Shown here: positions 2,742 to 23,034 of the stretch, piece after piece
Layout: each line of letters opens with the position of its first letter
Position numbering within the stretch: position 1 is the first letter of the stretch
From: a virus
Taxonomy: Duplodnaviria > Heunggongvirae > Uroviricota > Caudoviricetes
Virus record (IMG/VR): IMGVR_UViG_2585427758_000016
Reading direction: 5' to 3' (one strand)
DNA length: 24,673 bases
The notes under the pieces: model-generated
Seen by the model: only the letters and a program-made list of their open reading frames with translations
Databases searched by the model: none
Told to the model about the DNA's origin: nothing
Program-made: the position numbers and the translations under genes

Positions 2742-3167
2742 ATGGAAGGTTTATCTATGGATCAGGTAGTCATTTTTAAACAAATATTTGATAAAGTTCG
2801 AAACGATTTAAACTATCAATGGTTTTATTCTGAGCTAAAACGTCACAATGTCTCACATTACATTTACTATTTAGCCACAGAGAATGTTCATATTGTATTA
2901 AAAAATGATAATACAGTGTTATTAAAGGGCCTAAAAAACATTGTGTCTGTCAAATTTTCAAAGGATAGGCATCTTATAGAAACGACCTCTAATAAGCTGA
3001 AATCCAGAGAGATCACATTTCAGGAATACAGAAGAAACCTTGCTAAAGCAGGAGTTTTTCGGTGGGTTACAAATATCCACGAACAAAAAAGATATTACTA
3101 TACCTTTGATAATTCATTACCATTTACTGAAAGCATCCAGAAAACTACACAGATCTTACCACGCTAA
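2742..3167 (+). CDS. DUF1398-family protein (YdfO/YnaE-like)
   Basis: 141 aa ORF; size and position match ydfO of Qin. True start may be the internal Met at 2757 (MDQVVIF...). Confidence 0.55.
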
Positions 3168-3894: not shown

Positions 3895-4165
3895 GATGTT
3901 ACCGTAGTATGTGAGTATCCATCGAATAGACACCAAGCAAAAAAGCTCCCGAAGGAGCCTTCATTTTCACTTTTTTAAATCCAACGACAGACGGCTGGCA
4001 TTTAAGTATTGTGAAATATTATCAAATGTAATCATCATTGATTTACAAAAGATACATTTTGCCCCGAAAGGATTCATGTCAGAAACATCAAAAGATGATG
4101 TTCTATACTGGGAACCATGACAACACGGGCATCTAAAGTGAATATGGTTTGTAATATTGTCTACC

Positions 4166-4378
4166 TCAAAGCGCCACTACATGAACAGCGGCAGGACCTT
4201 TAGGTCCGTTCTCAATACCAAATTCAACTTCCTGATTCTCAGTTAATGTTTTGAAATCGTTGCTCTGAATTGCTGAGAAATGGACAAACACATCTTTGCT
4301 GCCATCTTTCGGCGTGATGAAACCAAAACCTTTTTCAGGGTTAAACCATTTCACTAAACCAGTCATTTTGTTAGACAT
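4166..4378 (-). CDS. cspI: Cold-shock protein, CspI-like
   Basis: 70 aa [38 protein letters not shown]...; canonical cold-shock domain RNP1 (KGFGFI) and RNP2 (VFVHF) motifs; long AT-rich 5' leader upstream (4379-4700). Confidence 0.9.
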
Positions 4379-4739
4379 AATTATTACCTTTTGAAGAAAT
4401 TAGCCCTTGGGCAGAATGGTCCGAAAAAAATATCAGAGAGAAAAACCAACAAGGAAATCTCAAGAGGTACAAATAATAAAATTATAACAATGACTGCTTC
4501 AGATAAATTTGTAACAAACCAGAACACCATTAACGCATGATTAACCACCCATAGCAAGGATTACTTTTGTAAAGAAAAACACAGCAATGAAAGAATAGCT
4601 TTATTTATTAATAAAACGTGTCATTCTGATTAAGACCTTTTATCTTACCCTTAAGATTTCAGGAATTTTGGCTCATGGAAGAGTCCTTTTTATTTAAATT
4701 TTACATTCCGCGATGTAAATGTTCCGATTTAATATTACC

Positions 4740-5763
<1,024 letters not shown>

Positions 5764-6767: not shown

Positions 6768-7048
6768 GAGATTGTGGTGCTTTTTGTGGGAGTCATCCAC
6801 TTACGCACTTTGTTTTGCGATGCCAGCAGTTAGCTTCTGCTGTGAAACTATTCATGCAGCAAACCTGCACTTCACCACAATGGTTAGCATACTTTTCCTG
6901 ATTAAGATTTTGCCAAATATGCTGGCCATTGTTTCATGTATTGGACCTCCTTACTTTTTATTAAAGAGATCCAATATTCACTACTCTGTCCGTATCTCTA
7001 CTCAGGCATCAGCCTTCTTCGTTATCGTATACAGACGAGCGATGAATT

Positions 7049-7264
7049 TTAATCAGTAATGATGACATTTACTGCTGCAGGACCTTTAGCACCACTCTCT
7101 ATAGAGAAGGTAACCTTTTGACCTTCAAATAAGGTTCGATAATTATCATTCTGAATCGCAGAAAAATGCACAAACACATCTTTACTACCATCAACAGGAG
7201 AAATAAAGCCGAAACCTTTATCAGCGTTAAACCATTTTACTAAACCAGTCATTTTATTTGACAT
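7049..7264 (-). CDS. cspB: Cold-shock protein, CspB-like
   Basis: 71 aa [64 protein letters not shown]...; cold-shock domain with long 5' leader. Confidence 0.9.
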
Positions 7265-7574
7265 TCTACATTCCTTAACTTGAGCCTTTCGGCATAAATG
7301 GTTTGCATAACAGAAACGACTTCGTACTTAATTGGAGAGACTCAAAGAAGGAATAAGTGAATAACACCTGAAATGAGAACTGCTTTAGTAAACTACTTCG
7401 TATATCGTCTGTTCTTCAAACCGACGCAGTCATTAACTCATAGTTGAACATATGAAGCAATGTTTATTTTAGACATCCAGCCACCTTCAATCCTATCAAA
7501 AAAGTAGTTTTCTCCAGGAACGTGTGTATGGTGCACCAGGTTATCAGTATTAAGGAGTTTTTCTGTCCCCTAAA

Positions 7575-10358: not shown

Positions 10359-10610
10359 TTATTCTCCTGAAAAAGCAGAAAAGCCAGCTTTTATTCCGAT
10401 CTCTTTCAATGCCTGTAATGAAGTGACAAACTCACCTTCGCGCAAGATAAATCCGTCCGTGACCCGAGCATCCACAAAATTAATTAACGCAGCCCCATTC
10501 TTTCGCAAACACATAATGCGGTAATGACTAACAAGATTTCCATTTTCAACGCACACAGCATAGAGGCCATCTTCACAAAAAATTTTACGCAGTTCTTCGA
10601 TGTTCATCAT
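10359..10610 (-). CDS. rem: Rem-like protein
   Basis: 83 aa ORF in the position and of the length of Qin rem. Confidence 0.7.
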   Translation of the reverse strand: MMNIEELRKIFCEDGLYAVCVENGNLVSHYRIMCLRKNGAALINFVDARVTDGFILREGEFVTSLQALKEIGIKAGFSAFSGE

Positions 10611-12533: not shown

Positions 12534-14407
12534 GTTAACATTACAAGATATAAGTAATGGACGCACTCCCAATTAGTCTATTTAAATCGCCACGAGTTTA
12601 ACTGACAACCCATGATCAATTATGAATTGCAACTATTTCTGTAGTCACTTTTGTGGGGACAGTCCACAAAACTGCCAACTTCCGCTTCTTGCTCTTAGCG
12701 GACATTAGCATAGGCTATTTACCATAACGTCTCATTACGCGCACCGCCCAGACTGACTCAGCGCGTTTCTGGCATATCCCCGGTAAAACAAGTAACAAAC
12801 CACCCGAAAATGAACACCAGAAACGCGACTTAAGAATCTACCCTATGAATGGATATGCACTCAACCGAATCGATCTTGGTTTCAATCTTTTTTATCGGGA
12901 TCAGGCTTCTTTTTAGGTAACTTCGGGGGCTTAACTTGCTGATGACTTTGCGTTCGGCGCGTAAGCCAGGGATGGTCAGCTTTAGGTTTAACATAGTATT
13001 TTGAGCGTAAATCAATACGGGCATTATCCACTCGTTCATGGACACTCTTTTCATCATCCAGTGGTATAGGCTCCGGGCCATCAACATACTTTTCCCAGCC
13101 CAGCGCTTTCCCGTCATACAGAACGTTAATTTCACCGTCAAAGTTCTCGCATACAGTAACAACCGAATGCCTAAGTCGATATCCCCGGCTCTCACTGCGT
13201 ACCTGAAACGCACTGCTTTTGTACTGGAAAGTGAGATTTTTAGACAGAACGCGCTTCGCCTGTAGGCTGAAGATATAACCCAGTTCCTCTTCAGAATGGT
13301 GCACATCAAGATGAGCATTATCAGTAGTACGAGGCGACGTAGCGAACCGGTTGTTATAGGCTTCAATAAAGGTCGGCAACCATGCATTTGCTGTTTCAAT
13401 ATCACTGATATTCTGAAGCCGCATTTCTTTGACCAGCCTGTCCTGTAGTGTCTGATTGGCGCGCTCTACCCGCCCTTTTGCCTGCGGGCTGTTGGCATGG
13501 ATTGGCTCGATGCCCAGTGTCTTTATCGCACGAGTGAACTGGGTCAGCTCACCTTCCCGCTCTGGGTTATTTACCCTGAATATACTGTGTCTATCAGAGT
13601 AGAGAGCGAGCGGTACGCCATGATCATTAAGGTAACCCCGGAGGGTTTCCATGTAAGCCCGGGTTGTTTCAGCAGGCACAAAACGCAACGCCATCAACGC
13701 ACTGGTGGCATCATCAATGAAAACGATCAGTGTACATCTGGGGCCTCGATTTTCAAACCAGTCATGAGGTGAGCCATCAATCTGGATCAGTTCACCGTAA
13801 GATGGTCGTCGCATGCGGCGTTGATATATACGGGCAATTTTACGACGGCGTTCACGCCATAACCCCTCTTCTATCATCCACTTTCTGAGAGTTTCAACGG
13901 ATAAAGATAAACCGTGTATCTCGCGCAATTTTTCGCACGCAAACGTAGGTCCAAAATCAGCGTAACGGCCTTTGAGGAGTGAAATTACTGTTGCTCTGAA
14001 TTCAGTAGAAAAGGAATTATTAGGACGCTTTCCACGTCGGTGGGAAACCAGACCAGAAGGCCCTTCATTTCTATACCGTTGCACCAGACGTTTAACCTGC
14101 CGAATAGAAATGCCAATGCGTGCCGCAGCTTGTTCCTGAGTAATATGTCGATTAATTGACTCCTGAATAATCTGAAGTCGGTGGAGTTCCTTATGACTCA
14201 TCGTAACAGTCTCTTTGATCATGAAAAATCCCCCAGAGAATTGTCTGGGGACATTTTAGAATGGTTCAAAGGGGACATTACAGCTTGGTGTTAACAATAG
14301 CCTGCTTCTCCGTGCCTTTCGGCACGTAAGAGGCTAACCTACATGTGTCTAGCATGAAATTGGCCTCAGATTAATGTTAAGCGTCTTGCAGGACGCGTAA
14401 TGTTAAC
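12534..14407 (-). mobile_element. Putative insertion sequence carrying one DDE transposase gene (IS481-family-like); boundaries tentative
   Basis: Single transposase ORF flanked by non-coding DNA; only candidate terminal inverted repeat I could find by eye is gttaacattac (12534-12544) versus gtaatgttaac (14397-14407). No direct repeats confirmed. Confidence 0.3.
12882..14222 (-). CDS. DDE transposase with N-terminal HTH and rve integrase-core domain
   Basis: 446 aa; N-terminal HTH region (TQEQAAARIGISIRQVKRLVQRY), catalytic-triad candidates in QIDGS, YSDRHSIF and GRVERANQTLQDRL with a basic residue seven positions after the Glu; Lys/Pro-rich C-terminal tail. Confidence 0.8.
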   Translation of the reverse strand: MIKETVTMSHKELHRLQIIQESINRHITQEQAAARIGISIRQVKRLVQRYRNEGPSGLVSHRRGKRPNNSFSTEFRATVISLLKGRYADFGPTFACEKLREIHGLSLSVETLRKWMIEEGLWRERRRKIARIYQRRMRRPSYGELIQIDGSPHDWFENRGPRCTLIVFIDDATSALMALRFVPAETTRAYMETLRGYLNDHGVPLALYSDRHSIFRVNNPEREGELTQFTRAIKTLGIEPIHANSPQAKGRVERANQTLQDRLVKEMRLQNISDIETANAWLPTFIEAYNNRFATSPRTTDNAHLDVHHSEEELGYIFSLQAKRVLSKNLTFQYKSSAFQVRSESRGYRLRHSVVTVCENFDGEINVLYDGKALGWEKYVDGPEPIPLDDEKSVHERVDNARIDLRSKYYVKPKADHPWLTRRTQSHQQVKPPKLPKKKPDPDKKD

Positions 14408-15887
14408 TGGGGCTTTTCTCTATCTGCCGTTGGTGTCCATGCCCGAGGCAGATAGCCTCAAGCACCCGCAGTCATTCTACTTAACTAAGATTTCCCCGCA
14501 AACCGTTTTTGTCCAGCACAGTAAATATCCAACTAAACCAATGGAGTTCGCTGTATTTACCGCCAGTATTCAATGCACATGACCGCCATGAACACCCCTA
14601 AAAAAAGGGCATTTATATATCCAAATATTAATATCAAAACATCAACTTTTTCCATATACCTTGCTGTGAAGATGATGGGCATACATGATGCGAACAACCA
14701 GAACGCAACAAACAAAAACTGCAATGCGTTTTTCATTATTCCTCCTACAATCAATGTGCAATTACATTTAAACACACCTCAATTTGGCCGGACATATAAA
14801 TATCTAAACCAGAAAAAATCACTTACATAGCGTTACAAACTCTTTAGTCTAAAGGTTCATCGTAAAACATTCCCCATACTTATCAGTCCGTTCCGCGCCA
14901 GGTAGCTCATTGCCTTATCTGGCAACCTGTAATCAGGTTTCCGCTTTTTCAGTTGGCTGGTCGTTTAACCGACATAGTTAATCCATTAATCTAGTTGCCG
15001 GATGTTGGTGGATTTTCGCGTTTTAGTTGTTCATAAAAGTGCACAGCTTTAACCAGTTCTTCTGATGTAACCGGGACTGGTGAGGCAGTGAATAAGGCCT
15101 GAATTTGATAGTTCGGCCTGTCGTTACAATCCTCTTTTTTCGGTACATATTTCCAGTCACCAGACCACTACTTCCCCTGAAAGTCCGTAACGCTTTTTTC
15201 ACGTAGCGATATCGCCATGCCACTGGTTTTGCTTGCCCCGCCGTTTCATGCCCTTCCTGATAATTAATCTCGCTCATTCATCGCCCCACTCATCACAATA
15301 TGCTTCGACCGGAGTTTTTCCCGCTTCATAGTCATCACGCTAGGATTCGACATCAGCAGCACTTCCACCGCGTAATTCACCATAGTCCATTAATAGTTCA
15401 TCCCGCTCTTCAAAACTGATGTTATATTTAGCTGAACAAAAATCAGCCACTTTGTTCTTCCTCATCGTCTTTTATTTCGTGGTATGAGTAATTGCAGTAG
15501 TTAAAGAAAATTTCTTATGCTCCGTCATGAATTTCATCAGGTGTTGCGTCATCGTCCACTTCGAATACATCCTCAAAATCTCCACCAGCTATTTCCGTTT
15601 CAATAATAATTTTGAACTTTCGCATTTCACTACCGCCCTTTCGGGCGGCCTCCTGATGTTCTGAGGGTGCAGAAATCCATCCGGTTAAGGATTAAGTTTT
15701 ATTTACAGAACTGAATTTAATTATTCAGATATACGTATCTGTAACCTTACGAATCTACTCACTGGATGCCTCTTTCATAAAAATAATCCAGTGGGTTTTA
15801 TCGTTTTTTCCCTGTTCGTTGACAGATAACAGGCTTTCTATCTGTCAGTGCCAGAATCTGGCTTACCGGTATTTGCGTTTCATTCCA

Positions 15888-17723: not shown

Positions 17724-18171
17724 TTGCTTTTTCTATAAGTTCGTCAGTTTCACGATCCACTACGGCAGGATCAGCAAAAAGCAGTCCGGACTCCACCACA
17801 TCGCCATATTCTTTGTTTAACCCGGCGATCATGCACGTGATGCTTTTTCCGTCAGTAATTTCACGATACAACCTGAAATCACTAATCCGGATAGCCTCCA
17901 TAATCGCAGGCACTAGCGCCGTGAACTTTTCACGCTTATCCCTGGTGTCGATAGCCTTCCAGCGTTCGAATATCTTCACTCGATTAACACCAAGCGCTCG
18001 CTGATCAACCGCGCCACCTTCATCTGTGACACGCTGAACATCGATGTTCGGGCGCTCTTTCAAAGCCCAGAATGCTTCAGTGATTAATATCGTCGCCTGC
18101 TCCTGTGTCATTCCTGGTCGACATATCCAGGCATCCAGAGCCTCACGAGCCTGTTCAGGAGTGATTTTCAT
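17650..18171 (-). CDS. Hypothetical early protein (173 aa) between the cro-like gene and the replication gene
   Basis: Protein-like ORF overlapping dicC by 17 nt at its start and the O-like ORF at its end; occupies the cII-equivalent position; no family recognised. Confidence 0.5.
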   Translation of the reverse strand: MKITPEQAREALDAWICRPGMTQEQATILITEAFWALKERPNIDVQRVTDEGGAVDQRALGVNRVKIFERWKAIDTRDKREKFTALVPAIMEAIRISDFRLYREITDGKSITCMIAGLNKEYGDVVESGLLFADPAVVDRETDELIEKAIAFKLAYRQQYQQKAGWNYEPSFC

Positions 18172-18385
18172 TGTTCAACCGCCCCGCCCGCTTCGTCTTA
18201 CGATATTCATCATAAACTTTGGGATCATACTGAAGCTCCCCGCCAGATGCCTCCTGTAGACGCATCGCGCGACCTTCAGGAACCAGTATCCCCCAAGCAG
18301 CAACACTTGCCAGCCTCACTCCTGCGGCATTGGCAAGCTTTGTTTTGCTGCCAAAAAAAGTAATTGCGTCAACTTTAAGCATCAA
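18155..18385 (-). CDS. dicC: Cro-like regulator DicC
   Basis: 76 aa; ...FGSKTKLANAAGVRLASVAAWG...PEGRAMRLQEASGGELQYDPKVYDEYRKTKRAGRL resembles K-12 DicC as recalled; divergent from the repressor gene. Confidence 0.85.
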   Translation of the reverse strand: MMLKVDAITFFGSKTKLANAAGVRLASVAAWGILVPEGRAMRLQEASGGELQYDPKVYDEYRKTKRAGRLNNENHS

Positions 18386-18396
18386 AGCCCCCTCTT

Positions 18397-18413
18397 GTTA
18401 GACTTTTCTAACA
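18397..18413. promoter_or_regulatory. Operator palindrome in the dicC-dicA divergent promoter region (TGTTAGA-n4-TCTAACA)
   Basis: tgttagacttttctaaca; 7-bp inverted arms with a 4-bp spacer, centred in the 77-bp intergenic region. Confidence 0.6.
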
Positions 18414-18462
18414 TTATTGTGCGCGGGATACCTAAGTCAAGAAAAATTAGAATTACCTAACT

Positions 18463-18870
18463 ATGGATACAAGAACCCTGGGCCAGCGAGTTCTGGCGCG
18501 ACGAAAAGAATTACGCTTAACACAACGAGAAGCCGCGCGCCTCGCTGGAGTTGCTCACGTCACAATTTCACAATGGGAAAGAGACGAAACCCAGCCAGTC
18601 GGAAAACGATTGTTTGCTTTAGCGGATGCTCTGAAGTGCTCACCTACATGGCTAATGTTTGGTGACGAAGACAAGGCACCAGTGCCTGCACAAGAACTTC
18701 ATGTGGAAACAGAGCTAACTCCCAACCACAAAGAATTGATCGAATTATTCGATGCTCTTCCATCTTCCGAGCAGGAAGCCTTGCTGTCTGAAATGCGCGC
18801 AAGAGTAGAAAACTTCAACAAACTCTTCGAAGAAATGCTTAAAGCGCGTAAAAATAAATCAATAAAATAA
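18463..18870 (+). CDS. dicA: Prophage repressor DicA (HTH_XRE family)
   Basis: 135 aa; HTH region LTQREAARLAGVAHVTISQWERDETQP and a C-terminus (...LFDALPSSEQEALLSEMRARVENFNKLFEEMLKARK) resembling K-12 DicA as recalled. Confidence 0.9.
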   Translation: MDTRTLGQRVLARRKELRLTQREAARLAGVAHVTISQWERDETQPVGKRLFALADALKCSPTWLMFGDEDKAPVPAQELHVETELTPNHKELIELFDALPSSEQEALLSEMRARVENFNKLFEEMLKARKNKSIK

Positions 18871-18902
18871 CATTCTTTTCAAGTGATTAGTTGCGCCCAC
18901 CC

Positions 18903-18959
18903 TTTTTGTTAGATCAATCTAACAAAAAACACTTGCCTCTCATGTTAGGTTATTCTAAA
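18903..18959. promoter_or_regulatory. Operator palindromes downstream of dicA (candidate promoter/operator of the ydfA-dicB operon)
   Basis: Perfect palindrome TTTTTGTTAGA-tcaa-TCTAACAAAAA at 18903-18928 and a weaker related site tgttaggttattctaaa at 18943-18959; same half-site as the dicC-dicA operator. Confidence 0.55.
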
Positions 18960-19038
18960 TTATTTTCCATCAAGACACCGCACGGTGTTCTCAGCAAACA
19001 GTTCCGCTACCCCGGCGTTAAGGGGAAATGAGGTCAGC

Positions 19039-19194
19039 ATGGATACTATCGATCTTGGCAACAGCGAATCTCTGGTATGTGGCGTGTTCCCCAACCAGGA
19101 CGGTACGTTCACCGCGATGACGTATACCAAAAGCAAAACGTTTAAAACCGAAAATGGTGCCCGTCGCTGGCTGGAAAGAAACCCAGGTGAGTGA
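19039..19194 (+). CDS. ydfA: YdfA-like small protein (DUF1391)
   Basis: 51 aa from the internal Met: MDTIDLGNSESLVCGVFPNQDGTFTAMTYTKSKTFKTENGARRW...; RBS aggggaaatgagg upstream. Confidence 0.75.
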   Translation: MDTIDLGNSESLVCGVFPNQDGTFTAMTYTKSKTFKTENGARRWLERNPGE

Positions 19195-19195
19195 T

Positions 19196-19324
19196 ATGGA
19201 TTTCGACACAATCATGGAAAAGGCTTACGAAGAATACTTCGAAGGTCTTGCCGACGGCGAAGAAGCTCTCAGCTTCAACGAATTTAAACAGGCGCTTTCC
19301 AGTTCGGCAAAATCTAACGGCTGA
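19196..19324 (+). CDS. ydfB: YdfB-like small protein (42 aa)
   Basis: Hand translation: MDFDTIMEKAYEEYFEGLADGEEALSFNEFKQALSSSAKSNG; below the ORF-track cutoff. Confidence 0.75.
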   Translation: MDFDTIMEKAYEEYFEGLADGEEALSFNEFKQALSSSAKSNG

Positions 19325-19353
19325 TAAGCGAAACAGCACCGCGAGGAATCAGT

Positions 19354-19572
19354 ATGCAGAAACGAGAACCCGTCATCATCGCGCCAGACTATACCGATGA
19401 TGAACTTTATGAGTGGATGCGCCAGAAAATTAATGCAGCGCAGGATTTGAAATGGGCCAATGAAACCAGGGCTAAGCAGGCTGAAAATCTGTCCGCTCTG
19501 GAGCAGGATATCACCAATCTGGAAAAAGCAGCGGCATTAAGCATTGCCAGAATGATTACATACCCGCGTTAG
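19354..19572 (+). CDS. ydfC: YdfC-like protein
   Basis: 72 aa ORF following ydfB; MQKREPVIIAPDYTDDELYEWMRQKINAAQDLKW... Confidence 0.8.
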   Translation: MQKREPVIIAPDYTDDELYEWMRQKINAAQDLKWANETRAKQAENLSALEQDITNLEKAAALSIARMITYPR

Positions 19573-19912
19573 TAGCTAATCAACAAAGCTAAGGTTAGTA
19601 ATTAAGGAGTTCTCCACGGGTGAGGTGGAGTGCGTGCGCCGGACACGGGTGAGCATCCGGCACTGACAGTTTACTGAAAGGATATTTCCCTGAAAAGTCA
19701 GACCATAACGCGAAAGCGCACGGCGAGGTAGCTGGTTCATAGATAGCCTGTCGTTAAATTTTCGTCGACCGTGCGCTTCCGGTTGTGGCAACCCGCGAAA
19801 TGGCGCGGCGGTAAGTATGGCGGGGTTATTCCTTCCCCGTTGAGGACACCGGGTTGTCAGGTTGACCATACGCTTAAGTGACAACCCCGCTGCAACGCCC
19901 TCTGTTATCAAT

Positions 19913-19970
19913 TTTCTGGTGACGTTTGGCGGTATCAGTTTTACTCCGTGACTGCTCTGCCGCCCTTTTT
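19913..19970 (+). ncRNA. dicF: DicF small RNA (ftsZ-targeting antisense sRNA) with its intrinsic terminator
   Basis: tttctggtgacgtttggcggtatcagttttactccgtgactgctctgccgcccttttt matches DicF as I recall it, including the ggcgg...ccgcc terminator stem and U-tail; lies between ydfC and dicB. Confidence 0.8.
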
Positions 19971-20139
19971 AAAGTGAATTTTGTGATGTGGTGAATGCGG
20001 CTGAGCGCACGCGGAACAGTTAAAACCAAAAACAGTGTTATGGGTGGATTCTCTGTATCCGGCGTTAATTGTTAACTGGTTAACGTCACCTGGAGGCACC
20101 AGGCACTGCATCACAAAATTCATTGTTGAGGACGCGATA

Positions 20140-20328
20140 ATGAAAACGTTATTACCAAACGTTAATACGTCTGAAGGTTGTTTTGAAATTGGTGTCACTA
20201 TCAGTAACCCAGTATTTACTGAAGATGCCATTAACAAGAGAAAACAAGAACGGGAGCTATTAAATAAAATATGCATTGTTTCAATGCTGGCTCGTTTACG
20301 TCTGATGCCAAAAGGATGTGCACAATGA
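20140..20328 (+). CDS. dicB: Cell-division inhibitor DicB
   Basis: 62 aa from the internal Met: MKTLLPNVNTSEGCFEIGVTISNPVFTEDAINKRKQERELLNKICIVSMLARLRLMPKGCAQ. Confidence 0.9.
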   Translation: MKTLLPNVNTSEGCFEIGVTISNPVFTEDAINKRKQERELLNKICIVSMLARLRLMPKGCAQ

Positions 20329-20516
20329 ATTCAGCATTTGTGCTTGTTCTGACAGTTTTTCTTGTTTCCGGAGAGCCAGTTGATATTGCAGTCAGTGTGC
20401 ACAGGACAATGCAGGAGTGTATGACTGCAGCAACCGAACAGAAAATTCCCGGTAACTGTTACCCGGTCGATAAAGTTATTCACCAGGATAATATCGAAAT
20501 CCCGGCAGGTCTTTAA
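20325..20516 (+). CDS. ydfD: YdfD-like small membrane (lysis-associated) protein
   Basis: 63 aa MNSAFVLVLTVFLVSGEPVDIAVSVHRTMQECMTAATEQKIPGNCYPVDKVIHQDNIEIPAGL; hydrophobic N-terminus; start overlaps the dicB stop (ATGA). Confidence 0.8.
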   Translation: MNSAFVLVLTVFLVSGEPVDIAVSVHRTMQECMTAATEQKIPGNCYPVDKVIHQDNIEIPAGL

Positions 20517-20609: not shown

Positions 20610-20867
20610 ATGAGTAAAGTCTTTATTTGCGCCGCTATTCCTGACGAACTGGCAACAAGGGAAGAAGGCGCTGTGGCTGTAGCCACAGCCATTGAAGCTG
20701 GCGACGAACGCCGTGCTCGAGCAAAATTTCACTGGCAGTTCCTGGAACATTATCCGGCTGCTCAGGACTGCGCTTATAAATTTATTGTCTGCGAGGATAA
20801 ACCTGGCATACCCCGCCCTGCCCTCGATTCATGGGATGCTGAATATGCAGGAAAACCGCTGGGATGA
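20610..20867 (+). CDS. Hypothetical protein (85 aa) upstream of the exonuclease
   Basis: ORF with an SD-like gaggt upstream; its 3' end overlaps the start region of the large exonuclease ORF in another frame. Confidence 0.45.
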   Translation: MSKVFICAAIPDELATREEGAVAVATAIEAGDERRARAKFHWQFLEHYPAAQDCAYKFIVCEDKPGIPRPALDSWDAEYAGKPLG

Positions 20868-23034
20868 GGAGTCTGCTTCTTTTGTCCCGGTTGAGACTGA
20901 ATCCGATCCGATGAACGTCACTTTTGACAAGCTGGCCCCTGAAGTACAGAACGCTGTCATGGTTAAGTTCGACACATGTGAAAACATCACCGTTGATATG
21001 GTTATTAGCGCACAGGAATTGTTGCAGGAAGACATGGCAACATTCGACGGACATATCGTTGAAGCGTTGATGAAAATGCCAGAAGTTAACGCCATGTATC
21101 CGGAGCTTAAGTTGCACGCCATTGGGTGGGTTAAGCATAAATGTATTCCTGGTGCTAAATGGCCCGAAATTCAGGCAGAGATGCGCATCTGGAAAAAACG
21201 TCGCGAAGGTGAACGCAAGGAAACCGGAAAATACACGTCTGTTGTTGATCTCGCCCGCGCCAGAACCAATCAACAGTACACTGAAAATTCAACAGGAAAA
21301 ATCAGCCCGGTCATTGCTGCCATTCATCGCGAATACAAGCAGACATGGAAAACACTGGATGACGAACTGGCCTACGCTCTCTGGCCTGGTGATGTGGATG
21401 CCGGAAACATTGACGGCAGCATCCATCGCTGGGCAAAAAAAGAAGTTATCGACAACGACCGCGAAGACTGGAAGCGTATCTCGGCATCAATGCGCAAACA
21501 GCCTGATGCCCTTCGCTACGACCGCCAGACTATTTTTGGCCTTGTCCGTGAGCGTCCGATCGACATTCACAAAGATCCCATAGCACTGAACAAATATATC
21601 TGCGAATACCTGACGACAAAGGGCGTGTTTGAGAATGAAGAAACAGACCTGGGCACTGTTGATGTTCCCCAGTCATCAGAAACACAAACTGATGCAGTGG
21701 AAACTGAGGTATCTGATATCCCAAAAAATGAAACCGCGCCGGAAGCTGAACCATCTGTAGAGCGTGAGGGGCCGTTCTATTTCCTCTTCGCAGATAAGGA
21801 CGGAGAAAAATACGGTCGCGCAAACAAACTTTCTGGTCTGGATAAGGCACTGGCTGCTGGCGCCACTGAAATCACAAAAGAAGAATATTTTGCCCGAAAA
21901 AATGGCACATACACGGGCTTACCGCAAAATGTAGATACCGCTGAAGATTCAGAACAACCAGAGCCGATAAAAGTTACCGCTGACGAAGTAAACAAAATTA
22001 TGCAGGCAGCCAATATCAGCCAGCCTGACGCCGATAAGTTGCTTGCTGCATCACGTGGTGAATTTGTTGAAGGGATTAGTGACCCGAATGATCCGAAATG
22101 GGTTAAGGGGATCCAGACCCGCGATTCTGTGAACCAGAACCAGCATGAATCGGAACGGAACTACCAAAAAGCGGAACAAAACAGCACAAATGCGTTACAA
22201 AACGAGCCAGAAACGAAACAGCCTGAACCAGTGGCGCAACTGGAAGTGGAAAAAGTCTGCACCGCCTGCGGTCAGACCGGCGGCGGCAACTGCCCTGATT
22301 GTGGCGCGGTGATGGGCGACGCAACATACCAGGAAACATTCGATGAAGAGTATCAGGTTGAAGTTCAGGAAGATGATCTGGAGGAAATGGAAGGCGCTGA
22401 ACATCCACACAAGGAGAACACTGGCGGCAATCAGCATCACAATAGCGATAATGAAACTGGCGAGACGGCAGATCACTCAATTAAGGTGAACGGTCATCAC
22501 GAAATCACATCCACCAGCAGGACGTGTGACCATCTAATGATCGACCTTGAAACCATGGGAAAAAATCCTGATGCCCCGATCATCTCAATAGGTGCAATAT
22601 TTTTCGATCTGGAAACTGCTGGCGGAGTCATTGATCGGGACACCATTAAATGGTGGCTTAAGCAATCACGCGAAGCGCAATCTGCCATTATGACCGATGA
22701 AATCCCGTTAGATGATGCACTGTTACAATTGCGGGAATTTATCGACGAAAACTCCGGTGAATTTTTTGTTCAGGTTTGGGGAAATGGAGCCAACTTCGAC
22801 AACACGATTTTGCGCCGTTCATACGAACGGCAGGGGATCCCCTGCCCGTGGCGTTACTACAACGATCGCGATGTACGCACAATCGTTGAGCTGGGGAAAG
22901 CCATAGACTTCGATGCCAGAACGGCTATTCCATTCGAAGGTGAGCGCCATAATGCACTTGATGACGCCCGTTACCAGGCAAAATACGTTTCAGTTATCTG
23001 GCAAAAACTGATCCCGAGTCAGGCTGATTCTTAA
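20836..23034 (+). CDS. Large prophage exonuclease: long N-terminal region, acidic linker with a CxxC...CxxC motif, and C-terminal DEDDh (DnaQ-like) 3'-5' exonuclease domain
   Basis: The ORF opens at 20692 but the first ~48 codons overlap the preceding gene and look non-native; likely start is MLNMQENRWDEE at 20836 or the Met at 20845. C-terminus shows Exo I (MIDLETMG), Exo II (WGNGANFDNTIL) and Exo III (HNALDDARYQAKY) motifs; occupies the exo/recE slot of the early-left operon. Confidence 0.8.
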   Translation: MLNMQENRWDEESASFVPVETESDPMNVTFDKLAPEVQNAVMVKFDTCENITVDMVISAQELLQEDMATFDGHIVEALMKMPEVNAMYPELKLHAIGWVKHKCIPGAKWPEIQAEMRIWKKRREGERKETGKYTSVVDLARARTNQQYTENSTGKISPVIAAIHREYKQTWKTLDDELAYALWPGDVDAGNIDGSIHRWAKKEVIDNDREDWKRISASMRKQPDALRYDRQTIFGLVRERPIDIHKDPIALNKYICEYLTTKGVFENEETDLGTVDVPQSSETQTDAVETEVSDIPKNETAPEAEPSVEREGPFYFLFADKDGEKYGRANKLSGLDKALAAGATEITKEEYFARKNGTYTGLPQNVDTAEDSEQPEPIKVTADEVNKIMQAANISQPDADKLLAASRGEFVEGISDPNDPKWVKGIQTRDSVNQNQHESERNYQKAEQNSTNALQNEPETKQPEPVAQLEVEKVCTACGQTGGGNCPDCGAVMGDATYQETFDEEYQVEVQEDDLEEMEGAEHPHKENTGGNQHHNSDNETGETADHSIKVNGHHEITSTSRTCDHLMIDLETMGKNPDAPIISIGAIFFDLETAGGVIDRDTIKWWLKQSREAQSAIMTDEIPLDDALLQLREFIDENSGEFFVQVWGNGANFDNTILRRSYERQGIPCPWRYYNDRDVRTIVELGKAIDFDARTAIPFEGERHNALDDARYQAKYVSVIWQKLIPSQADS

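Follow-up and report, generated by a model that had tools for sequence, protein, structure and literature searches.

What occupies the 340 untranslated nucleotides that separate ydfC from the small RNA (sRNA) gene dicF, and why should DicF be made by way of a 190-nt precursor? The question is raised by positions 19039-20516 of IMG/VR virus record IMGVR_UViG_2585427758_000016 (Caudoviricetes; the whole stretch of 24,673 nt is hereafter the window), where ydfA, ydfB, ydfC, dicF, dicB and ydfD follow one another on the plus strand. In Escherichia coli K-12, the polycistronic transcript either stops at the intrinsic terminator of DicF or reads through into dicB-ydfD. DicF is made from this transcript: RNase E is needed for its 5' end, and its 3' end is either the intrinsic terminator (53 nt) or, where transcription has read through, a site cut by RNase III (72 nt) (PMC5069750, PMC9438474). 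Ragunathan et al. (2023) reported a further, 190-nt DicF species, whose 5' end results from an RNase III cut between transcript positions 813 and 814; this species is lost in an rnc mutant, builds up on RNase E inactivation and has no internal promoter, and the paper makes no statement on secondary structure (PMC10448788). As detailed below, the last 210 nt of the leader hold two conserved, covariation-supported structures that share one strand. The resulting map gives the 190-nt species a concrete and testable rationale, and it suggests a way in which phages could produce small RNAs that end in a terminator and carry exchangeable seeds.

The identity of the operon itself is clear from a base-by-base comparison with the Qin prophage of K-12 MG1655. 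Identity is 100% across dicF, dicB and the 174-nt spacer between them; the leader carries 3 substitutions in 340 nt (99.1% identity) and ydfD a single, synonymous one, with both the DicB and YdfD proteins being identical to their MG1655 counterparts. All five reading frames are intact: ydfA (19039-19194; 51 amino acids (aa), Pfam PF07151 (DUF1391) at 95.6 bits, 3 aa differences from K-12), ydfB (19196-19324; 42 aa, PHROG 2061, 2 aa differences; both names follow PGAP), ydfC (19354-19572; 72 aa, PHROG 1744, 1 aa difference), dicB (20140-20328; a 62-aa cell-division inhibitor, NCBIfam NF049927 at 132.8 bits against a cut-off of 100 and Pfam PF05358 at 136.8 bits against 27) and ydfD (20325-20516; a 63-aa lysis protein of the DUF1482 family, PF07358 at 91.1 bits against 25), whose ATG start and the stop codon of dicB share the sequence ATGA (20325-20328). 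Together with dicF they lie on one strand in the order ydfA-ydfB-ydfC-dicF-dicB-ydfD, downstream of dicA and with dicC divergent, and order, spacing, strand and chromosomal neighbourhood are all like those of the K-12 dicBF operon (ydfABC-dicF-dicB-ydfDE). The first-pass annotation, made from the sequence alone, had proposed this gene order with intact frames and translational coupling of ydfD to dicB, and it stands with slightly corrected coordinates (ydfB starting at 19196, dicF spanning 19913-19965 with a U-tract to 19970).

The same 1478 nt recur at 100% identity in at least 25 complete E. coli genomes, annotated there with the same five PGAP gene names, and 4757 of 5426 genomes have some match to this stretch. 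As a whole, the window represents a Qin-type prophage that shares 99.9% identity with E. coli strain MB10 and occupies the same chromosomal site as Qin; unlike K-12, where intQ and ydfE are pseudogenes accompanied by an IS2 fragment, it retains an intact integrase and excisionase. On these comparisons we read 19039-20516, with a probability of about 0.9, as an intact copy of the dicBF operon in the early-left region of a Qin-type lambdoid E. coli prophage, under the control of a DicA-type repressor. By its identity to the expressed and toxic K-12 copy, the operon is probably functional. DicB and DicF both block division (PMC5069750, PMC8835842), DicB being described in published papers as an indirect inhibitor of FtsZ polymerisation, and YdfD causes lysis by inhibiting IspG (PMC8835842). 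[quoted passage not shown]

DicF, a 53-nt sRNA ending in an intrinsic terminator, is identical to K-12 b1574 at 53 of 53 positions. The alignment of 19914-19965 to Rfam family RF00039 covers all 52 model positions, scores 76.7 bits (gathering score 48, E=1.4e-15) and has every pair canonical, and the all-canonical terminator hairpin is followed by UUUUU at 19966-19970; a simple terminator scan skipped it because its stem is interrupted. The proposal that DicF and its terminator lie between ydfC and dicB is borne out by this alignment, and no substitution inactivates the ftsZ-pairing region: since the gene is identical to the characterised K-12 RNA, the regions that pair with ftsZ, xylR and pykA (as delimited in PMC5069750) are untouched. 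Hfq binding and repression of ftsZ translation have been reported for the identical K-12 RNA (PMC5069750). The K-12 RNA acts with Hfq by base-pairing with the ftsZ, xylR, pykA and manX mRNAs.

The leader (19573-19912), which constitutes the 3' untranslated region of ydfC, is a mosaic of structured modules, and BLAST of the leader, dicF and spacer against phage records shows separate segments matching separate phages. It had been predicted to contain no credible open reading frame (ORF) and to be a structured, processed RNA. This description agrees with the folding and covariation presented here, with the published RNase III and RNase E processing and with the lack of any supported ORF; in the folds, the RNase III cut falls in a conserved helix, and the precursor contains a conserved cloverleaf.

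The cloverleaf is a four-way junction of 115 nt (19782-19896) that makes up the 5' domain of the 190-nt pre-DicF. It is closed by the 8-bp stem P1 (19782-19789/19889-19896) and comprises helix H1 (19793-19797/19804-19808), a long arm in which P2 (19810-19812/19848-19850) leads through a 6x6 internal loop into H2 (19819-19825/19835-19841), and helix H3 (19851-19859/19879-19887). It is the minimum-free-energy (MFE) structure of most of about 64 distinct variants folded singly. When 72 distinct sequences are aligned with MAFFT, 94.0% of the cells are paired and 11 of the 32 pairs have changed on both sides, values that none of 500 shuffles reached by any measure and that compare with 37-63% paired cells in slid-partner controls; a model-fitted alignment raises the count to 13 of 32. 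H3, for example, reads GGGUUGUCA/UGACAACCC in E. coli, GGGUAACCA/UGGUUACCC in Izhakiella and GGAUUGUCA/UGGCAAUCC in Citrobacter, and H2 is built from unrelated sequences of differing lengths that always form a hairpin. A covariance model of the element detects a single copy in each true locus, which shares its strand with the DicA-like repressor gene wherever the latter is detected, and Rfam 15 contains no family matching it up to E=10. Downstream, an AU-rich linker (GCCCUCUGUUAUCAAU, 19897-19912) that is predicted to be single-stranded ends at the RNase E-made 5' end of DicF (19913); this is the segment that varies most between lineages.

The cloverleaf is preceded by a second conserved element, the helix P0ext (arms 19703-19724/19767-19788), which corresponds to inverted repeat I2, forms 20 pairs with small bulges and is present in MFE folds. 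Among 38 distinct variants, 89.6% of the cells are paired, a fraction inflated by the fact that the 5' arms were picked by complementarity, and 9 of the 20 pairs have changed on both sides, while slid controls reach 23-44%. The arms covary, as illustrated by AAGCGCAC/GUGCGCUU in E. coli versus GAGAGCAU/GUGCUCUC in Erwinia-type and Ayreon-type copies. A 190-nt RNA ending at the 3' end of DicF would begin at position 19776, halfway along the 3' arm of P0ext and 6 nt ahead of the cloverleaf; consistently, a transcript start near 18964-18970 would bring the RNase III position 813/814 of PMC10448788 to about 19776-19782. P0ext would accordingly represent the upstream RNase III site. Moreover, its GUUGUGG segment (19782-19788) doubles as the 5' strand of stem P1, so that P0ext and the cloverleaf exclude each other, and both partners are conserved.

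A third structure lies beyond dicF, where a long-range helix (arms 19975-19993/20104-20122; inverted repeat I1, 19 nt, 89% complementary) encloses smaller hairpins within the spacer; the fold of 19900-20145 has a z-score of -4.84, and none of 200 shuffles folds as well. Because the published 3' end of the 72-nt DicF (19984) falls within its 5' arm, this helix would constitute the second RNase III site. Each of the two published RNase III positions has a helix, and the RNase E site has an AU-rich linker; the cleavages themselves are known from PMC10448788 and PMC5069750.

Taken together, these elements suggest a sequence of events in which P0ext would form first on the nascent transcript and be cut by RNase III near 19776 (the cut being published and its site placed here). 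Cleavage would free the GUUGUGG strand and allow the 190-nt product, which would carry a 5'-monophosphate, to refold into the cloverleaf. Refolding would leave the linker 19897-19912 (...UAUCAA|UUUUC...) single-stranded, and RNase E, by the published cut at 19912/19913, would then release the 53-nt DicF. Along this route the cloverleaf may serve as a scaffold that supports the maturation and stability of a small RNA ending in a terminator and carrying a lineage-variable seed; DicF would be the E. coli/Shigella version of this RNA. The cloverleaf is also possibly active by itself, as the released 137-nt fragment. DicF has been considered the founding example of RNase E-processed sRNAs from mRNA 3' untranslated regions or operon interiors, such as CpxQ, SroC and SdhX, with which it shares early intrinsic termination and an RNase E cut that frees an Hfq-binding sRNA (PMC9438474). 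It differs from them by the prior RNase III step and by a 190-nt intermediate with a large conserved 5' domain, a step that the same review does not describe for CpxQ, SroC or SdhX.

Is this arrangement peculiar to dicF? DicF is less widely conserved than the rest of its 190-nt precursor, and a segment of about 19782-19904 is kept at 78-89% identity in phages that lack the DicF seed, namely Ayreon, Stx2c phages, 2H10, Salmonella phage F1055 (a BLAST match) and phage P1. An exact-pattern scan recovered at least 120 cloverleaf copies from IMG/VR and, among GTDB species representatives, 16 true copies and 3 chance matches. The true copies belong to Escherichia species, Shigella, Citrobacter, Serratia symbiotica, Trabulsiella, Erwinia tracheiphila, Izhakiella and three contigs of metagenome-assembled genomes; these contigs are labelled Bacillota, Veillonella and Collinsella, and their copies are near-identical to the E. 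coli and phage P1 types. Covariation-supported copies lie, for instance, at 2486-2617 of the phage P1 locus (L003), 2997-3130 of the Ayreon locus (L004), 4531-4664 of the Erwinia locus (L143) and 2372-2505 of the Izhakiella locus (L144). In every lineage examined, the cloverleaf is followed by a variable linker and then by a terminator hairpin with a U-tract, a constant order that gives the element the look of a constant scaffold with an exchangeable seed.

The copy of phage P1, which lies in the leader of the ban operon, scores 90-94 bits with the covariance model and shows compensatory changes in H2 and H3. It lies about 45 nt after the C1-controlled Pban and overlaps a 'dicF-like region' annotated in AF234173. 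As at dicF, a hairpin and U-tract follow about 20 nt after the cloverleaf; in contrast to dicF, there is no DicF seed, the terminator sequence is different, the genes downstream are tRNA genes, tciABC and ban rather than dicB, and the helix preceding the cloverleaf can be aligned only in part with P0ext.

Based on these data, we tentatively propose, at clearly less than even odds, that the helix-plus-cloverleaf unit (19703-19896) represents an uncatalogued and widespread RNA family of temperate enterobacterial phages, in which an RNase III-triggered refolding cassette sets the split between small RNA and downstream-gene transcript, with DicF as one member and the cloverleaf as the conserved core. 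Such a cassette would follow an early promoter under repressor control, precede the first terminator and carry a seed segment specific to the lineage, with dicB and ydfD, or the tRNAs and ban in phage P1, as its downstream genes. The module was found neither in Rfam nor in the accessible literature, which does not cover Faubladier 1990, Faubladier and Bouche 1994 (PMC205167) or the P1 genome paper (PMC523184).

Several variations on the leader accompany these structures. Positions 19709-19725 (CGCGAAAGCGCACGGCG) and 19794-19810 (CGCGAAATGGCGCGGCG) form a 17-nt direct repeat; beyond this repeat, the covariance model, run with its filters off, detects no second, degenerate cloverleaf in the leader. 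Three copies (L013, L057 and L134) appear to lack the 5' strand of stem P1 and have a different upstream sequence instead, and the junction in L013 matches the 17-nt repeat, as expected from a deletion between the repeats. A T-arm-like hairpin (GCGGG-UUCAAUU-CCUGC) sits about 90-120 nt before the cloverleaf of the Erwinia and Izhakiella loci (L143 and L144), in the loop of the helix that precedes it; CUGG-UUCGAUU-CCAG in locus L050 is a compensatory variant of this hairpin, and ARAGORN predicts no tRNA. In Erwinia, Izhakiella, Trabulsiella and Serratia (L143:~4690-4770, L144, L140 and L132), the hairpin found at the position of the DicF terminator (GGCGGUACC...GGUACCGCC UUUUUU) encloses about 60 nt with a Shine-Dalgarno-like AGGAG and a conserved ATG TTC TAC CG (MFYR...), and a short reading frame may therefore start inside the terminator stem.

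The operon sits directly downstream of a DicA-family repressor gene on the same strand (18463-18870; 135 aa, NCBIfam NF007257 DicA at 224.7 bits against a cut-off of 101, HTH_3, 56% nucleotide identity to K-12 dicA), beyond which a cro-type, dicC-like regulator gene is transcribed divergently (18155-18382, minus strand; NF007282 DicC at 165.7 bits, Pfam P22_Cro, 80% nucleotide identity to K-12 dicC). A repressor gene, a same-strand operon and a divergent cro-like gene make up a lambdoid early-left arrangement. Four operator-like TTAG-N6-CTAA palindromes, to which the repressor would bind, are confined to the two intergenic regions of the immunity region, two in each: 18398-18411 and 18447-18460 between dicC and dicA, and 18909-18922 and 18945-18958 (plus strand) overlapping a predicted promoter (TTGCCT at 18933-18938, a 17-nt spacer and TAAATT at 18956-18961). 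These four are the only occurrences in the whole window, compared to 0.38 expected, and none of 100 shuffles reaches four. The earlier description of a repressor-controlled leftward operon is upheld by the repressor gene immediately upstream and by these palindromes, with a weak promoter.

As judged from the identities to dicA and dicC, the repressor is of an immunity type different from that of K-12 DicA. The immunity region (18155-18960) departs from K-12 to this extent, the operon downstream is 94-100% identical, and the jump in identity between dicA and ydfA suggests a modular exchange at this point. A homolog of the Rem antirepressor (92% aa identity) is encoded at 10362-10610 on the minus strand. 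In K-12, the promoter upstream of ydfA is held off by the repressor and turned on by the Rem antirepressor or by spontaneous switching. The layout of the control region fits the published K-12 picture of repression by DicA, derepression by Rem and operators in both intergenic regions (PMC10448788), operator binding by the present repressor type being predicted by analogy.

A number of observations weigh against the interpretations given above. Concerning the operon, the promoter matches the consensus weakly (4/6 and 4/6), was read from the sequence and is absent from the list of the automatic promoter scan; the different immunity type makes the operators predicted sites only; and a frameshift in the exonuclease gene immediately downstream shows some decay of the prophage. 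Concerning the refolding cassette, the paired fraction of P0ext is inflated as stated, and the RNase III position near 19776 was derived from the 190-nt length rather than from the published nucleotide. In addition, the MFE structure of the K-12-type 190-nt RNA is an alternative fold (-69.6 kcal/mol versus -61.2 kcal/mol for the cloverleaf plus DicF hairpin). Finally, the copies of Ayreon, of closely similar Stx2c-converting phages and of P1 are almost without the seed segment, which implies that production of a trans-acting sRNA is not the sole role of the cloverleaf.

A rival possibility is that the cloverleaf is a cis-acting transcription element that decides between stop and read-through by modifying RNA polymerase or by hairpin control, as HK022 put or a riboswitch-like attenuator would. 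The layout is compatible with such a role, as in every lineage (Qin-type, Ayreon, the near-identical Stx2c-converting locus, Erwinia, Izhakiella, Trabulsiella, Serratia and P1 ban) the cloverleaf comes after an early promoter under repressor control and is immediately followed by the first intrinsic terminator, and no N-like antiterminator was recognised with PHROGs among the first genes of the operon. The alternative MFE fold of the K-12-type sequence would even pair GCGGCGG of the cloverleaf with the 3' strand of the DicF terminator; however, this pairing is complete only in the K-12-type sequence of the window, partial in L108 and absent from 15 of the 16 other lineage representatives, and was discarded as a conserved anti-terminator. 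A boxA or nut-like site 5' of the cloverleaf fared no better, because its GUGCUCU/GUGCGCU motif is the paired, covarying 3' arm of P0ext; a single-stranded boxA (YGCUCUUUA) 5' of a boxB hairpin, as in lambdoid nut sites, was not found at 19769-19781 and the cloverleaf. The resemblance to HK022 putL and putR is one of function only, both being structured cis RNAs of lambdoid early operons upstream of terminators (PMC9378689): neither blastn nor the covariance model detects the cloverleaf in HK022 (or, in the latter case, in the chance-match loci), and put is a two-stem fold of about 70 nt with a triplex (PMC9378689), present after both pL and pR, whereas the cloverleaf is a 115-nt four-way junction with a single leftward copy per locus and none in the rightward operon. 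We regard a purely cis-acting role as doubtful. A degenerate tRNA or tRNA-like RNase P substrate, comparable to the precursors of P1 c4 or P4 CI RNA, is suggested by the four-arm shape with its 8-bp closing stem, by the three tRNA genes in the operon of the phage P1 copy and by the T-arm-like hairpin (GGGUUCAAUUCCUGCC) that some lineages carry in the loop of the preceding helix, and yet is very unlikely. ARAGORN finds no tRNA or tmRNA gene in the window and none at the cloverleaf in 9 loci; the Rfam tRNA and tmRNA models have no match at 19782-19896 up to E=10, and the C4 model also misses the cloverleaf, although it detects C4 elsewhere in phage Ayreon. The element, at 115 nt, is without a canonical T-loop, and the mapped 5' end of the 190-nt RNA is RNase III-dependent and, instead of falling at the base of the closing stem, lies 6 nt upstream of it.

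That the leader encodes a protein instead is hardly credible. Its only ORFs are a 36-aa GTG frame on the plus strand and an uninterrupted 111-aa TTG frame on the minus strand (19576-19911), the region of the latter being listed as hypothetical proteins in matching phage records. Neither has a Pfam match, no gene is annotated there in K-12 or RefSeq, homologous copies differ by 1-nt indels that break any reading frame and by an H2 hairpin replaced with one of another length, and the substitutions compensate for RNA pairing on the plus strand. The remaining alternative questions the operon as a whole, as a silent and decaying relic that is neither expressed nor functional in this strain. It would be in keeping with a Qin-like prophage that harbours insertion sequence (IS) elements, with the weak promoter match and with the state of the exonuclease gene (20610-23034) that follows ydfD: relative to K-12 and strain CFSAN064036, a 2-nt (AT) deletion at 20842 splits it into ORFs of 85 and 780 aa, and a 45-nt in-frame deletion occurs at 22603, which make it either a pseudogene or the result of a sequencing slip in the AT repeat. 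Against this stand the five intact frames and two K-12-identical proteins, the presence of the repressor, operator-like sites and Rem homolog, the identity of DicF, spacer and dicB to a copy shown to be expressed and toxic (PMC5069750, PMC10448788), and the unchanged persistence of the 1478 nt in other genomes. A relic is thus improbable, and an intact dicBF operon remains the preferred reading of the locus.

The spacer downstream of dicF bears some likeness to another RNA. Over 19963-20172, the full 206-position model of Rfam family STnc100 (RF02076) aligns with 34.4 bits, below the gathering score of 47 (E about 2.5e-5), and the hairpin CACCNGGAGGCACCNGGCAC is common to both. The spacer was not accepted as a member of this family, given its score and given that a related locus (L092) has its true STnc100 (100.8 bits) 8 kb away from dicF, beside tRNA genes; PasD/STnc100 RNAs have been described near the Q antiterminator and lysis genes (preprint 10.64898/2026.05.13.724894). 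A similar sub-threshold STnc100 match is located upstream of tciA in phage P1 (L003:3842-3961).

At its 5' side, the leader includes a region (19602-19674) with the hairpins CUCCAC..GUGGAG and GCCGGA..UCCGGC, preceded by TAAGGAG, that matches phage vB_EcoP_phi367 at 92% in another context and, from this match, is probably another mobile module. Elsewhere in the prophage, Rfam matches at gathering level correspond to two cspA-type thermoregulator leaders of prophage cold-shock genes (4139-4523 and 7002-7425, both on the minus strand) and to a sok antitoxin RNA (14296-14467, minus strand) that adjoins hokD.

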